Source: a virus (lineage: Duplodnaviria; Caudoviricetes). Taken from it: a DNA stretch of 40,709 bases. The notes under the pieces were generated by a model, which was given only the letters and a program-made list of their open reading frames with translations, was not told the origin of the DNA and made no database searches. The stretch covers positions 1 through 40,709 of IMG/VR virus record IMGVR_UViG_3300037043_000392, one strand, 5' to 3'. Numbering within the stretch: position 1 is the stretch's first letter; each line of letters starts with the position of its first letter. Positions 1 to 38,882 of the stretch are shown piece by piece. The translations under genes were made by a program, and so were the position numbers.

Positions 1-543
1 AAAGGGAGCCGGAACCAGGAACACGCTGCGCCAGGAAAAGGTCTGGGTCAGCCATCCGCCGACCAGGGGCCCGCAGCTCAGGCCGGAATAGACCGCTGCC
101 ACCGTGATGCCCAGCACCCGGCCGCGCTCCTCCAGGGGGAAGACCGATGTCACGATCGCGATCCCCGTGGCGAAGATCATGGCGATGCCGACCCCCTGGA
201 TCACCCGGAAGACGATCAGGGCCGCCATCGACCAGGCCAGGCCCGAAAGCAGGGAGGCCAGCGTGAAGAGCAGCGTGCCGGCCATGAACACCTTCTTGCG
301 GCCGTGAATGTCGGCCAGCTTGCCGACCGGCACCAGCGCCACGGCGGCCGCGACGAGGTAGGAGGTCGCCACCCAGCTCAGCATGACGGCATCCGCCTGG
401 AAGTGGGCCCCCACGGCCGGCAGGGCGATGTTGACGGAAGAGAGCATGAAGGGGGTCAGAAAGGAGCTCAGCGAAGCGACCAGCAGCGCCGACCACCGCT
501 GGGCCTTATCCTCCGCGGTTGGTTGTGAAGAAGCGGGATTCAT
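1..543 (-). CDS. Host MFS drug:H+ antiporter (EmrB/QacA-like), N-terminal part; runs off the window edge
   Basis: Manual translation from ATG at 543: MNPASSQ...SSVNIALPAVGAHF...VPVGKLADIHGRKKVF (MFS motif A)...FRVIQGVG...EERGRVLG...GPLVGGWL. Confidence 0.9.
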   Translation of the reverse strand, partial: MNPASSQPTAEDKAQRWSALLVASLSSFLTPFMLSSVNIALPAVGAHFQADAVMLSWVATSYLVAAAVALVPVGKLADIHGRKKVFMAGTLLFTLASLLSGLAWSMAALIVFRVIQGVGIAMIFATGIAIVTSVFPLEERGRVLGITVAAVYSGLSCGPLVGGWLTQTFSWRSVFLVPAPF

Positions 544-2543: not shown

Positions 2544-4454
2544 TCATTTTGACACGGCGCCCGAGAATTTCAGGCCGGAGATATTTGCGCCCGTGGCCGG
2601 CACGCCGCCGCCCACCAGGTAGATCAAGTACAGGGTGTCCGCCGCGCTGTTGCTGGCGGCGTCGCTTGCCGTGGCCGTAAAACTGTTCACGCCGGTTATT
2701 TTTCTCAGGGAAACGTCGTCGAAATAGGCTGGGCTCGCGTTGGCTCCGTACAGTCGCAGGTTGACGGTGGTCCCGGTCGTCAGCTGGAACACCGTCGAAA
2801 TGGTGACCCACTGCCCCGCGAGCGCCTGGTCCTGGGCGCGGGCGTCGCCGATCGTGTTCGTGCGGGCGGCGGCGAAATCGATGAAAATCGACCCGTCCGA
2901 ATCGGTCATGTCCGAAACGTAGACCAGCGCCGATGCCCGATAATATGCGTTGGTTTCAAGGCCCGTGACGATCTGGTAGGCCTCGGACCACAAACCGTTG
3001 TCGGCGACCGAAAGCGTTTGCGCGCGACCGGCGTTGGTCCCTTGGGTCAGAATCGAGTTGTAGGGTGCCCATCCGGTCGTGGCCGAGTCGAATGTCGGGT
3101 TGGCAATCAGCTCCGGGCCGAGCGATGACGGCGCGATCACGAGGTTGGCAACCGACCACGACGCTGTTCCGGAGGCGGTGCCCGACGACGGCGTGCAGCT
3201 CGGGCAGGCCCATGTCACGGCGGCCACGCCGATGTCGTCCGCGGCCGTTCCGGCGATGGAGACGGTCCCGCCGGCGGACTCGTAGTGCGCGAGTGCGGTC
3301 GGTGAGGTGATCGCAATCGTGGGCGCGGTGGTGTCGGACCACGGGGTCGAGTCGTAGGTGATGCTGATCGTGTCGGTGGAAGTGTTGCCGGCCGAGTCGT
3401 GCGCCGTGACGACGACCGGGTTTGGGACCGTTTCGCTCTCGGTCAGCGCGATCCCGGAGATCGACCAGGAGGTCGTTCCGGAGGCGGTACCGGAGGACGG
3501 CGTGCAGGTCGTGCATGACCAGGTGACGGAGGTCACGCCCACGTTGTCCGATCCGCCGCCCGAGACGGTGATCGGAGAGGTGGCGGTCGTGTATGCCGCC
3601 GCCGATGTCGGACCCGTGATCGTGACCGTCGGGGGCGTGGTGTCCGATCCGCCGCCCGACCATCCGATCGGGCCGATCATGCGGTTTCCGGAGGCGTCGG
3701 TGGCCGAGGGGGTTTCGTTGGTGATGACGATCGAGTCGACATAGGCGGACTGGTTCTGCGGGCTGCCGCCGTTCCAGGCCGAAAACACCAGGACTTCCTT
3801 GATCGAACCGCCGGAGGCGATCGTGGTGACGCCGCTGCGCGAGTAGATCAGGACCCCGTTTTTCCAGATGCGATGGATCCCGTTACCGCCGCTGTCCGCC
3901 TTGACGTACTGCTCGTAGCACACCCAGGTCCCGCGCTCGCTGAAGAACTGGCCGGTCTGATCCATGACCCAGTCGATCTCTTCGATCGAGGCCGTAATCT
4001 CGCCGTTGCCGGTTCCGTTGCAGTTGTCCCATGAGTAGGGCGATGAGTCACAGAAGGCCAGGATATCCTTGCAGTGGGCGCCGCCGTCATTGTCGCGGAA
4101 ACGCAGGATCTTTTTATGGTAGCCCTCGGAGGCGGAAGAAAAGTCGAACCCGGACGGGAAATAGTAATAGGCGCGCACCCACAGCTCGCCGCCCTGCGTG
4201 ATGTATTGGCTGAGGGTGTATCCGCCGGTAAATGTAAAATAGTCTCCGTTGTCCCCCTGAGGGAACGTGAACTTTGCCGAGTACGAACCCTCCCGGACCT
4301 GCTCGGAGCTCTGGGTCACGGTGCTCCCTGGCCACGAGAATCCGTTCGTCCCGCTCACGCCGGATTCGAATGTGCCGTAGCGGGTGAAGGCATGCGCGCC
4401 GCTCGCGGCCAGAATGCAGGCGGCGGCTATCAATATTTTCATTTTCATTTTCAT
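2544..4454 (-). CDS. Secreted modular carbohydrate-active/adhesin protein: polysaccharide-lyase-like jelly-roll, two Ig-like repeats, CBM4/9-like domain
   Basis: Signal peptide ending AHA; ELWVRAYYYFPSGF, WVCYEQYVK, GIHRIWKNG, YVDSIVI; repeated DTT.PT..IT.PT...D.VGV..VTW; ELIANPTFDS...YFDDVSLR. Confidence 0.7.
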   Translation of the reverse strand: MKMKMKILIAAACILAASGAHAFTRYGTFESGVSGTNGFSWPGSTVTQSSEQVREGSYSAKFTFPQGDNGDYFTFTGGYTLSQYITQGGELWVRAYYYFPSGFDFSSASEGYHKKILRFRDNDGGAHCKDILAFCDSSPYSWDNCNGTGNGEITASIEEIDWVMDQTGQFFSERGTWVCYEQYVKADSGGNGIHRIWKNGVLIYSRSGVTTIASGGSIKEVLVFSAWNGGSPQNQSAYVDSIVITNETPSATDASGNRMIGPIGWSGGGSDTTPPTVTITGPTSAAAYTTATSPITVSGGGSDNVGVTSVTWSCTTCTPSSGTASGTTSWSISGIALTESETVPNPVVVTAHDSAGNTSTDTISITYDSTPWSDTTAPTIAITSPTALAHYESAGGTVSIAGTAADDIGVAAVTWACPSCTPSSGTASGTASWSVANLVIAPSSLGPELIANPTFDSATTGWAPYNSILTQGTNAGRAQTLSVADNGLWSEAYQIVTGLETNAYYRASALVYVSDMTDSDGSIFIDFAAARTNTIGDARAQDQALAGQWVTISTVFQLTTGTTVNLRLYGANASPAYFDDVSLRKITGVNSFTATASDAASNSAADTLYLIYLVGGGVPATGANISGLKFSGAVSK

Positions 4455-36431: not shown

Positions 36432-36553
36432 TCGCAATCCTTAATGCTTTGAGCGGACCGTCCCTGGTGGTTATCGGGTTGTTGGTCGTGGTGACGCTGG
36501 TCGCCGAAATCTACGCCCAGGTGCGCGAAACGATCGATGATTTTAGACGCTGA
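36419..36553 (+). CDS. Small single-TM protein (44 aa)
   Basis: AAGGAG RBS; MQELIAIL...LVVIGLLVVVTLV. Confidence 0.5.
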   Translation: MQELIAILNALSGPSLVVIGLLVVVTLVAEIYAQVRETIDDFRR

Positions 36554-37112
36554 CCATGCGCTGAAAAATCCGTGCCGCGCGTGCGCTCTGGCCGGCGCCG
36601 ACAAGAACGGCCCCGCGTGCCTGCACTGCGGACTGCGCCTTGATTACGTTCGCGCCCTCGGCGGGCATTTCCCCAGCTCCGAGGCGGCGGGTCCCGCTTT
36701 GGTCGAGTCGGGGACGGCCTCGGCGCGGAAGCATGTTTCGCCGCTGAGGCCCATGACCAGGGGGATTTATACCGGCCGGGAGATCGGCTTTATCAGGCAA
36801 AACGCGCGGGCCATGACGGACGAGCAGCTGGCGCTGGCGATGGGACGGACCGCCGCTTCGATACAAAGGCAGCGCGTCGTCCACGGAATCAGACGCCATA
36901 AAGGAGGCAAGATGCCGTTCAAGATTTGCAAGCGTTGTGGAGCCAATAAGGAGCGGAGCGAGTTCTACGGCACCGACACGACGTGCAAACCCTGCCGCAA
37001 CAAGTACAATGCCGAGCGCCAGCGCCGGAAGCGGATGGCAGACGATCCGCCGCAGAGAGAGAGAGAGAGAGAGAATTCCGGATCCCGGTGGGCCGTCAGT
37101 TCCAGCTGCTGA
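36537..37112 (+). CDS. Cys-rich/HTH protein; contains an internal start at 36912 (zinc-finger gene interrupted by a GA tract)
   Basis: CRAC, CLHC, MTDEQLALAMGRT; AAGGAGG-N4-ATG at 36912, CKRC...CKPC. Confidence 0.6.
   Translation: MILDADHALKNPCRACALAGADKNGPACLHCGLRLDYVRALGGHFPSSEAAGPALVESGTASARKHVSPLRPMTRGIYTGREIGFIRQNARAMTDEQLALAMGRTAASIQRQRVVHGIRRHKGGKMPFKICKRCGANKERSEFYGTDTTCKPCRNKYNAERQRRKRMADDPPQRERERENSGSRWAVSSSC
37055..37074 (+). repeat. (GA)10 simple sequence repeat within coding sequence
   Basis: Read directly from the sequence. Confidence 0.95.
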
Positions 37113-37241
37113 TCCGGTTCGAATTTCAGGAGATATCGAATCGAAAATCGTCATCACCATCGACTGCGCCGGGATTGTAGATGCTTTGATCATCAAGGCC
37201 CTGCGCGAACTCATAGCCACCAACAACAAGGAGGTAGACCC

Positions 37242-37757
37242 ATGTCCAGATTGATCAGTCACCTGCGCGAGCACAAGGACGACCTGCTTTTCATTTTCGC
37301 CTGCCTGGCCGGCATCGTCGCCGCCACGCTGGCCGTGGGCGGCTGCCTATACCAGAAGCCGGCCGCGCCGATCTGCGCGAAGCCCGAGTACGCGGGATCG
37401 GTCATCTGCGCGATCGGGGAGCAGGTGGGTGTGGCCCCGGAGCAGATGGACGACATGCTGCTCGATGCCAGCCTGCTTACGGTCGCCACGAAGCGGGCCA
37501 AGGCGCAAGACATGAAAAAGGCCATCGCGAAGGTGCGCAAGTGGGTGGTCGATAAGGATGTCCTGACCATGCAGGGCATCCAGGCGTATCTCGCCGAGCA
37601 GGCCAAGGTGGATCCGGCGCTGGCCCTTCTACTGTCGCGACGGATGCCCATGTTCGCCAATCTGCCGGGCCTTAGCGACAAGGCCTTTTTGCCGATCGAC
37701 AAGCAGATGGTGATCTCCCAGCTCGACCACCAGGATGAGCAGTTCGAGTTTCTGTGA
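37242..37757 (+). CDS. Membrane-anchored / possible lipoprotein
   Basis: AAGGAGGT RBS; hydrophobic stretch ending LAVGGC. Confidence 0.7.
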   Translation: MSRLISHLREHKDDLLFIFACLAGIVAATLAVGGCLYQKPAAPICAKPEYAGSVICAIGEQVGVAPEQMDDMLLDASLLTVATKRAKAQDMKKAIAKVRKWVVDKDVLTMQGIQAYLAEQAKVDPALALLLSRRMPMFANLPGLSDKAFLPIDKQMVISQLDHQDEQFEFL

Positions 37758-37770
37758 GGTTTGCCGGCTG

Positions 37771-37853
37771 CGCTTTCCCCGCGCTGGGGTGTGGATTGAA
37801 ACGGGAATGGAGCTTCAAAGTAATCTCAGCCCGGCGTCTCACCCCGCGCGGGG
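37771..37853 (+). CRISPR. Single-spacer type I-C-like mini-array (degenerate repeat, 33-nt spacer, truncated repeat); no cas genes
   Basis: Repeat 1 CGCTTTCCCCGCGCTGGGGTGTGGATTGAAAC (37771-37802); spacer 37803-37835; repeat 2 GTCTCACCCCGCGCGGGG (37836-37853). Confidence 0.72.
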
Positions 37854-37862
37854 AACACGGAG

Positions 37863-38009
37863 GTGATCGATCAACGTTCTCCCGAGGACCGCGACAAGAT
37901 CGCACAGTGTCTCCGCAAGATCAGCGCGGCGGTAGAGGAGCATGGCGAGCTCGGAATCATCGCCCTGGCCCTGGCCGGGATCGTAACCCAACTTCAAAAC
38001 GGAGAGTGA
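37863..38009 (+). CDS. Possible 48-aa protein
   Basis: GTG-started frame IDQRSPEDRDKIAQCLRKISAAVEEHGELGIIALALAGIVTQLQNGE; start uncertain. Confidence 0.4.
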   Translation: MIDQRSPEDRDKIAQCLRKISAAVEEHGELGIIALALAGIVTQLQNGE

Positions 38010-38019
38010 CGGAGGCGAG

Positions 38020-38421
38020 ATGGCTGACGACCGGGACAAGATGAGCGACGAGCAGAAGCGTTTCCTGAAGGGCCGCCTGCTGGAGATCCTGATCGGCCAC
38101 GTCGGCAAGAGCCAGATCATCGGCATGGGCGAGCTCTACGAGTCCGTTTTCGGCGAGCCCTGGAACCACCGCATCAACGACACCCGCCGGTTGAGAAAGC
38201 TCATCGAGGAGCTGCGCCGCGACGGAAAGCAGATCTGCTCCGATCCCGCGCGGGTCGGCGGCGGCTATTACATTGCGAGCACCACCAGCGAGCTCGCCGA
38301 CTACTGCGGAAAGCTTCGCCACCGCGCCCTTAAAATTCTGTCGGTCGAGGCGCGGATCCGCAAGGTGAGCCTGCCCGAGCTCGTGGGCCAGCTGCGGCTC
38401 GACCTGGAGGCGATGGAATGA
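38020..38421 (+). CDS. Winged-helix protein
   Basis: GGAGG RBS; RRLRKLIEELRRDG..ICS....GGYY.A....E. Confidence 0.75.
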   Translation: MADDRDKMSDEQKRFLKGRLLEILIGHVGKSQIIGMGELYESVFGEPWNHRINDTRRLRKLIEELRRDGKQICSDPARVGGGYYIASTTSELADYCGKLRHRALKILSVEARIRKVSLPELVGQLRLDLEAME

Positions 38422-38882
38422 AAAAAGAAACCGACCCTGTGCGCAAACAGCTGAACAACTTGCTGGCCGAAATCGGCGCCAAGAAAAACGCGATCGCGGT
38501 AATGGGGAAGTGCCGGGCGGCCGCGATCGAGCGCGCGGCGGCGCAGTTCGACCCGGAGATCGCTCGCGCCGAGGAGGACCTGAAGGCGATCGAGGCCGAG
38601 CTGATCGGCATCGCCAGATATAATAAGGCGCAGCTGTTCACCGACACCGAGCGCGTTGATCTCAAGAACGGCGCGGTACTGCGGACGATCCAGAAGCGCG
38701 TGGTCAAAGTGAAGACCATGCTGGCGAGTCTGAAGGCCGCTGGCTTGCGGCACCTGATCAAGGTGGCCGAGGCGCCGGATTGGGATTCGATCGACCAGTT
38801 TACGGATTCTGAGTTGGAGAGCCTTGGCGCGCGGCGGAAAAAGAAGGAAATCTTCGCCTATGAGATCAAGGGGGCGCGATGA
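38418..38882 (+). CDS. gam: Gam-like host-nuclease inhibitor
   Basis: Coiled coil then NKAQLF...VDLKNG...L...GL..LIKV.E.PDW...LESLGARRKKKEIFAYE. Confidence 0.75.
   Translation: MKKETDPVRKQLNNLLAEIGAKKNAIAVMGKCRAAAIERAAAQFDPEIARAEEDLKAIEAELIGIARYNKAQLFTDTERVDLKNGAVLRTIQKRVVKVKTMLASLKAAGLRHLIKVAEAPDWDSIDQFTDSELESLGARRKKKEIFAYEIKGAR

Follow-up and report, generated by a model that had tools for sequence, protein, structure and literature searches.

Can a phage without cas genes make use of a single repeat-spacer unit taken from a CRISPR array, and if so, against whom would the resulting RNA be directed? This question is raised by a short intergenic region of the provirus record IMGVR_UViG_3300037043_000392, which is estimated to be 69% complete. 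The window analysed here comprises all 40,709 nucleotides of this record. The region contains one genuine type I-C repeat-spacer unit, which is set inside a hairpin that belongs to the phage. The explanation that we tentatively prefer, while holding it to be somewhat less than probable, is that the unit is a candidate RNA anti-CRISPR of the Cracr kind, a name given to viral crRNA-like RNAs that repress Cas or CreT (Liu et al., 10.1101/2024.10.29.618823, main text). The product of host Cas5c would occupy Cascade and would probably steer it to a host promoter.

The window carries a Mu-like transposable phage, with genes for a ner-like regulator, MuA, MuB, GemA, Gam and an endolysin on the plus strand and with a Mu-type portal and head genes on the minus strand. 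The unit lies in the ner-MuA-MuB-GemA-Gam operon, consistent with the early-operon location given in the original prediction. The features of the region are listed in Table 1.

Table 1. Features of the repeat-spacer unit and of its neighbours (positions are those of the window).
Feature	Position	Strand	Basis or remark
Upstream accessory gene, 171 aa, lipoprotein-like	37242..37757	+	Hydrophobic N-terminus followed by GGC, by eye
5' arm of phage hairpin	37760..37776	+	Starts 3 nt after the stop codon; judged phage-derived rather than repeat-derived from matches to L001 and L063
Hairpin-like stretch CCCC/loop/GGGG	CCCC 37777-80, loop GCGCT, GGGG 37786-89, single T 37790	+	Sequence
8-mer CCCCGCGC, copy 1	37777..37784	+	Left junction of phage arm and repeat; copy 2 at 37842-37849
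Stem strand of repeat back half	37786..37791	+	Predicted to pair with 37840-37845 (pair probabilities 1.00)
Type I-C handle motif GTGGATTGAAAC	37791-37802	+	Sequence
11-nt type I-C 5' handle, exact	37792..37802	+	Sequence and repeat comparison
33-nt spacer	37803..37835	+	Sequence; 55% GC versus 64% for the window
Repeat front half	37836..37853	+	16/18 versus the commonest array repeat fetched
3' arm of phage hairpin	37851..37867	+	GGAGG ribosome-site-like motif and start of next reading frame; 12/17 to L001 3952-3968
48-aa reading frame, possibly a gene	37863..38009	+	Other sequence in its place in the X6 relative
Conserved 133-aa early gene, phrog_2113	38020..38421	+	PHROG match; synteny anchor
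Mu Gam-like gene, following the 133-aa gene	38418-38882	+	Family match

The evidence that the unit is real begins with the handle motif, which occurs once in the window. The handle by itself is modest evidence, because 9 of 100 shuffled sequences reach one match when a single mismatch is allowed (average of 0.10 matches). The whole unit was scored using the last 16 and first 18 letters of a viral array repeat (L041) placed 32-37 letters apart. It scores 31/34 by this measure, compared with 21-25 for 200 dinucleotide shuffles. The back-half repeat (R1) ends in 17 letters identical to the end of one viral I-C repeat (L045, 17/17), and the first 17 letters of the front-half repeat (R2) match another at 16 positions (L048). 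Neither repeat is whole, as R1 matches at 25/32 across the full repeat length and R2 has no handle. The best blastn match in plasmids is a I-C array adjoining the annotated cas3-cas5c-cas8c-cas7c operon of Nitratidesulfovibrio vulgaris DP4 pDVUL01. In the array of this locus, 43 of the 44 gaps between repeats are 33-36 nt, a range that includes the spacer in the window. The two copies of the 8-mer are 65 bp apart (32+33), equal to one repeat plus one spacer. The unit is composed of two half-repeats at spacer distance and is not a solitary repeat. Its exact handle and array-length spacer both count in favor of a guide function.

These results support most of what was first claimed from the sequence. 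The hairpin, handle, 33-nt spacer and repeat front half are located where they had been placed, and the type I-C origin is borne out by the handle, the unit score and the plasmid match. The description of the phage as Cas-less agrees with a scan of 47 ORFs of the window (from a record estimated to be 69% complete), which yielded no cas family, and the proposal of one crRNA-sized unit is also supported. The four matches from a scan against Rfam are each far below the gathering score.

The sequences outside the unit are best understood by comparison with related phages. The closest relative fetched (L001; MuA 65%, MuB 82%, 133-aa gene 61%) has at the same position a long hairpin with neither handle nor spacer, located after a different lipoprotein-like gene that is unrelated to the one in the window (hhalign probability 2%). 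The 5' arm at 37761-37779 matches L001 3915-3933 at 18/19 positions, and among the loci compared only L001 exceeds 15/19. A second relative (L063, 5493-5508) matches 37758-37773 at 13/16 positions. Of the basal pairs of the L001 hairpin, 13 of 16 can still form in the window. Judged by these alignments, the outer letters are the arms of a phage hairpin and not a worn repeat, and the unit is a single 65-bp stretch of repeat plus spacer within that intergenic hairpin. The original prediction held that the parts of the repeat discarded from a crRNA had decayed, a view that the matches to the L001 hairpin (18/19 and 12/17) argue against. Its related claim that similarity ends at the borders of the unit needs to be divided. 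The likeness to I-C repeats does stop where it was said to stop, but the letters beyond are homologous to the hairpin of related phages and pair with each other.

The simplest history would be that a single array unit was captured through recombination at the 8-mer CCCCGCGC. None of 83 related loci, many of which are redundant, has the unit, and 26 whole related records lack the handle. For this reason, gain of the unit is favored over its loss in L001, in a comparison of two sequences. Integration by Cas1-Cas2 into a pseudo-repeat was rejected as an alternative route since it should duplicate the whole site, and the shared letters are restricted to the 8-mer core and a few adjacent G nucleotides.

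Several other features of these hairpins were observed. A long stem follows homologues of the 171-aa lipoprotein-like gene in two relatives (L062 5712-5783 and L063 5496-5570), and in both a 7-nt bulge inside the stem contains the motif GATGAGGGG. These stems match no Rfam family and are possibly an undescribed phage RNA motif. On the minus strand, positions 37842-37858 of the window read like what we take to be the start of a type I-E repeat. A type I-E reading was rejected since no second repeat is present at spacer distance, and these letters are probably a by-product of the hairpin arm. Similarly, a 12-letter motif near position 3286 of another locus (L013, minus strand) is one letter off what is presumably a type I-E repeat end, and no second repeat is seen in the interval from GemA to the 133-aa gene around it.

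The neighboring genes provide information on when the unit might be expressed. No sigma-70-like promoter is found in 36900-38100, which together with the early-operon position agrees better with expression during infection or upon induction than with expression in the lysogen. The 171-aa upstream gene has no Pfam or PHROG family and the 48-aa frame has no known family. The best PDB sequence matches of the 48-aa and 133-aa neighbors (E 0.072 and 0.037) include none that is an Acr by name. Further upstream, about 10 AG units are located at 37055-37074, where the overlapping frames 36537-37112 and 36937-37254 meet. L001 has a single 233-aa ORF whose end resembles, by eye, the window frame 36937-37254, and the AG run is a possible slippage switch or frameshift.

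The probable host was examined using the DNA that flanks the phage. Two 19-nt direct repeats at 763-803, near a likely Mu end, look like putative transposase end sites, and to their left lies a host gene for an EmrB/QacA-type MFS transporter (1-543, minus strand). At 91% identity this gene matches a cluster in which one member is named 'Desulfobacterales bacterium', and the names found in more distant clusters are Desulfobacterales, Desulfobacteraceae or Deltaproteobacteria. The flanking host DNA therefore points to Desulfobacterales by sequence grouping. A type I-C operon is described for Desulfotignum phosphitoxidans in the text available from PMC4046663. Because of these two lines of evidence, the host lineage plausibly has a type I-C system. 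A host lineage devoid of I-C, which would have spoken against the original prediction, is not what this evidence indicates.

The predicted fold bears directly on how the RNA could be processed. The region folds as a single long stem (-53.1 kcal/mol, z -3.07, with 0 of 200 shuffles as stable), in which 16 pairs between 37775-37791 and 37840-37855, interrupted by one bulge, have predicted probabilities of 0.92-1.00. A whole I-C repeat carries its own 7-bp stem, as given in the available part of PMC8524198, and processing at the hairpin of each repeat had been assumed for the unit. The predictions do not support this assumption, with a probability of 0.00 for the hairpin of R1 and 1.00 for cross-pairing of the two halves. 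The hairpins of the individual repeats have 4 bp and stabilities of -6.4 and -6.9 kcal/mol, versus about -14.5 kcal/mol in common repeats. The preference for cross-pairing over these hairpins (-28.8 kcal/mol) is more extreme than that of any of 262 comparison units, which come from fetched loci with arrays or mini-arrays and average -10.6, the closest value being -26.6. Because 109 of these 262 ordinary units also cross-fold at equilibrium, cross-pairing is not special in itself, and in these models it is the weakness of its own hairpins that sets the window unit apart.

In the predicted structure, G37791 forms a pair with C37840, and U-G-G and the handle come after it, the same arrangement as at the foot of an ordinary repeat stem. 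The paired halves are thus predicted to restore a stem resembling that of a repeat above the site of the Cas5c cut, with the loop replaced by more helix. According to the portion of PMC8524198 available, cleavage by Cas5c falls after G21, and the enzyme recognizes the stem base and U22-G23-G24 but neither the loop nor the 5' overhang. A single Cas5c cut between 37791 and 37792 is plausible because the cross-paired fold would retain those parts that Cas5c reads. Handle positions 37793-96 (G23-U26) are predicted to pair with 37836-39, the first four letters of R2 (unpaired probability 0.01-0.20), and this pairing could hide G23-G24 from Cas5c. The same handle pairing is predicted for a natural viral repeat (L153). 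Taken as a whole, the model would describe a working I-C guide made from a permuted repeat, whose halves are clamped by the phage hairpin and whose stem, made from two repeat copies, is cut by Cas5c. We regard this as possible but doubtful. A part of the same reading, given the same guarded credence, is that L001, set beside the window, shows how such a guide gene originates, through capture of an array unit into an existing phage hairpin.

Conservation was assessed using contigs from other sources, with X1-X4 left out of the count because this DNA may itself derive from them. No contig of X8 aligned, and X9 aligned only outside the unit. A contig from a freshwater sequencing run (X6; depth of 4.4, so that errors are possible) covers 37712-37866 with 3/155 letters different, including 37787 G>T and 37835 C>A. 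The contig keeps the handle and 32/33 spacer letters, the changed letter being the last, PAM-distal base, and continues after 37866 with a different sequence that has its own ATG. A second X6 contig, possibly from a different strain, has 10/151 differences in the upstream gene (Fisher p = 0.05 versus 3/155). This difference is a weak indication that the handle and spacer may be under selection. The change at 37787 disrupts a pair in the rebuilt stem, which counts against such selection. A contig from coal (X5) is identical over 37697-37848, which documents presence without divergence. Conserved repeats combined with a variable spacer, as had been anticipated for homologues, are not seen, as the sole independent relative (X6) keeps the spacer. 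A 19-codon ORF (37807-37866) was considered as the conserved element in place of the repeat halves and was rejected. Inspection by eye reveals no clear ribosome site for this ORF, and the spacer change in X6 converts its codon 10 from Ala to Glu.

These data are most relevant to the strongest rival, according to which the unit is inert, having entered the hairpin by microhomology recombination and being carried without function while the long stem blocks processing. Duplication of the 8-mer accounts for the shape of the unit with no need for selection, and an inert passenger agrees with the single narrow lineage (absent from 83 related loci, with the handle absent from 26 records), with the weak hairpins of the individual repeats (-6.4 and -6.9 versus about -14.5 kcal/mol), with a handle that is predicted to be partly paired and with the change in X6 that weakens the stem. 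The exactness of the handle argues otherwise, as does the retention of handle and spacer in X6 despite a drifted neighboring gene and replaced downstream sequence (p = 0.05, weak). We judge inert capture to be unlikely.

Searches for the target of the spacer gave no match above chance level. Within the window, the best spacer match is 21 of 33 and no TTY-plus-seed site is present, in agreement with the earlier statement that the window holds no convincing target. It had also been proposed that phage and plasmid databases be searched with partial matches and a TTC PAM, and this route likewise led to no target. A blastn search of INPHARED phages and PLSDB plasmids yielded E values of 0.3-6 in unrelated hosts. 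The first 18 letters of the spacer match once in IMG/VR (L025), at a site that lacks TTC and whose distal letters do not match, where about one match is expected by estimate. A 26-letter spacer pattern has 0 matches in GTDB genomes and 0 in JGI metagenomes, and PAM plus seed gives 18 matches in IMG/VR that reach only 17-21 of 33. The collection scans used exact patterns, which would miss a partial regulatory match, and the collections cover groundwater viruses thinly, making the blank result a weak one. Among loci fetched for this analysis, the spacer has 0 matches in 26 related records (mostly fragments), a best match of 21-22 of 33 in 843 kb of sequence and no match in the N. vulgaris DP4 locus (L051). 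In the reverse direction, 271 fetched I-C spacers produce only 12-19-letter matches to the window and related loci. A scan of viral contigs for the handle plus seed gives 10 matches, none in a repeat context.

The absence of a target from the searched collections fits a pure decoy similar to a Racr, which would soak up Cas5c and Cas7c and for which the spacer sequence is irrelevant. The early-operon position would suit this role, and there is a precedent in RacrIC1, which inhibits type I-C in the account available from PMC10651486. Two features make such a decoy rather unlikely. Racrs are solitary repeats, whereas the unit has a handle, a full spacer and a 3' half that should together build a complete Cascade, and its spacer is conserved in X6.

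If the spacer does matter, its target could be another phage or plasmid that host Cascade-Cas3 is programmed to destroy, as occurs with virus-borne mini-arrays. An array-length spacer whose GC content is unlike that of the phage (55% versus 64%) agrees with this role, and spacers of viral mini-arrays mostly target related viruses (PMC11656645, available portion). However, 0 of 26 related records match, the 26-letter pattern is found in neither GTDB genomes nor JGI metagenomes, the 18 PAM-plus-seed matches in IMG/VR reach only 17-21 of 33 in a collection that covers groundwater viruses thinly, and no promoter for expression in the lysogen is found. A guide against competitors is, in our estimation, slightly less credible than the decoy. 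A Cas-sensing switch, in which the ribosome site of the following gene is sequestered in the stem and is released when Cas5c cuts or Cascade loads, so that downstream early genes respond to the CRISPR state of the host, is highly improbable: GGAGG and the beginning of the following frame do lie in the 3' arm in both the window and X6, and the ribosome site of L001 lies outside the stem, but the stem base in the window is weak (pair probabilities of 0.45-0.87), the cut product is predicted to refold over the same ribosome site and the 48-aa frame may not be a gene.

A host target is favored over a rival virus because of the early-operon position, the lack of a detectable promoter and the stable spacer. 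The candidate RNA anti-CRISPR of the Cracr kind would accordingly arise and act as follows. The unit would have been captured when the phage recombined with a host array at the 8-mer CCCCGCGC, and it would lack a dedicated promoter, being transcribed within the early mRNA. Cas5c would make a single cut between 37791 and 37792, and another nuclease would form the 3' end in or after 37846-37853 to give an RNA of roughly 60-65 nt. This RNA would load into Cascade in competition with host crRNAs. A partial match next to a PAM would then silence a cas promoter or the promoter of a linked defence without cleavage, as Cracr RNAs do. Apart from the missing target match, the frequency of cross-pairing in ordinary units, the predicted pairing of the handle, the X6 change at 37787 and the lack of the unit in related loci, two more observations count against this interpretation. 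The spacer is a full 33 nt, compared with reported I-C regulatory crlRNAs of 48-57 nt in total, and no acr-like neighbor is identified.

The implications depend on which of these readings is correct. If the permuted-guide reading is true, there is a general route from ordinary phage hairpins to CRISPR guides. If the RNA is processed, Cas5c would need only a stem base and a handle, even in a permuted and loop-less context. Processing would also provide a compact guide design for I-C Cascade in which a single cut suffices, and phages of Desulfobacterota would join those with RNA counter-defence. The empty-site relative L001 makes the origin of viral guide mimics testable, as it indicates that the flanks derive from a phage hairpin and not from a worn repeat. 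An inert unit would still be a clear record of array-to-phage recombination, with small consequence.

Viral mimics of I-C guides are already in print in the form of RacrIC1, the I-C Cracr arrays and viral mini-arrays. No description of a viral I-C unit with permuted or cross-paired repeats turned up in the literature searched, which was mostly open-access papers and the main texts of preprints. A second split I-C unit was also not detected in viral contigs among the 26 matches of one strict pattern or the 25 matches of another. The 26 matches consist of array ends and variants, a few chance matches and two single-handle I-C units on the minus strands of other viral contigs (L151 and L166). In these two units the first hairpin is intact and the second repeat is worn, making them candidates for ordinary crlRNAs or Racrs. 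Four viral contigs (L030, L031, L041 and L045) carry I-C mini-arrays of two whole repeats and one spacer.

Like the window unit, Racrs and solitary repeat units, including RacrIC1, are viral I-C repeat mimics without cas (Camara-Wilpert et al., PMC10651486). In the available account, a Racr is one solitary repeat that often lies beside an acr gene, whereas the window unit has two half-repeats, a full spacer and no identified acr neighbor. Virus-borne mini-arrays (PMC11656645; Shmakov et al., PMC10120712; also the subject of PMC6858448) likewise hold one spacer between repeats and borrow host Cas proteins. As far as the portions available describe them, their repeats are identical to those of the host and their spacers mostly hit related viruses, in contrast to a unit in which neither repeat is whole and the spacer matches none of 26 related records.

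The host I-C crlRNAs that control Nezha, Gabija and CRISIS (10.1101/2024.12.27.630466) share with the unit the 11-nt handle and degenerate repeats, and the non-canonical formation of their 3' end in a short hairpin can be likened to that proposed here. These regulatory crlRNAs use TTC or TTA PAMs. In the text available, they are unlike the window unit in being chromosomal, located in cas loci and 48-57 nt long, with a 5' repeat that keeps its own hairpin and a target next door. Further background is provided by available text on CreR (10.1101/2023.03.10.532045) and on viral sgRNAs (10.64898/2026.06.01.729453).

The comparison with Cracrs is the closest to our preferred interpretation. A Cracr is defined by at least 9 PAM-proximal letters matching a host CreR or CreA spacer. 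In the main text of the Cracr report, which describes nine two-spacer I-C arrays, the hosts are Pseudomonadota, Bacillota and Actinomycetota with no mention of 'Desulfo', whereas the flanking DNA of the window points to Desulfobacterales. The cross-paired split repeat of the window has no counterpart in the parts of the main text of that report consulted here. The window unit shares with Cracrs a Cas-less mobile element as its carrier, a degenerate repeat-spacer-repeat unit located outside a cas locus and a CRISPR type, I-C, that is among the Cracr targets.
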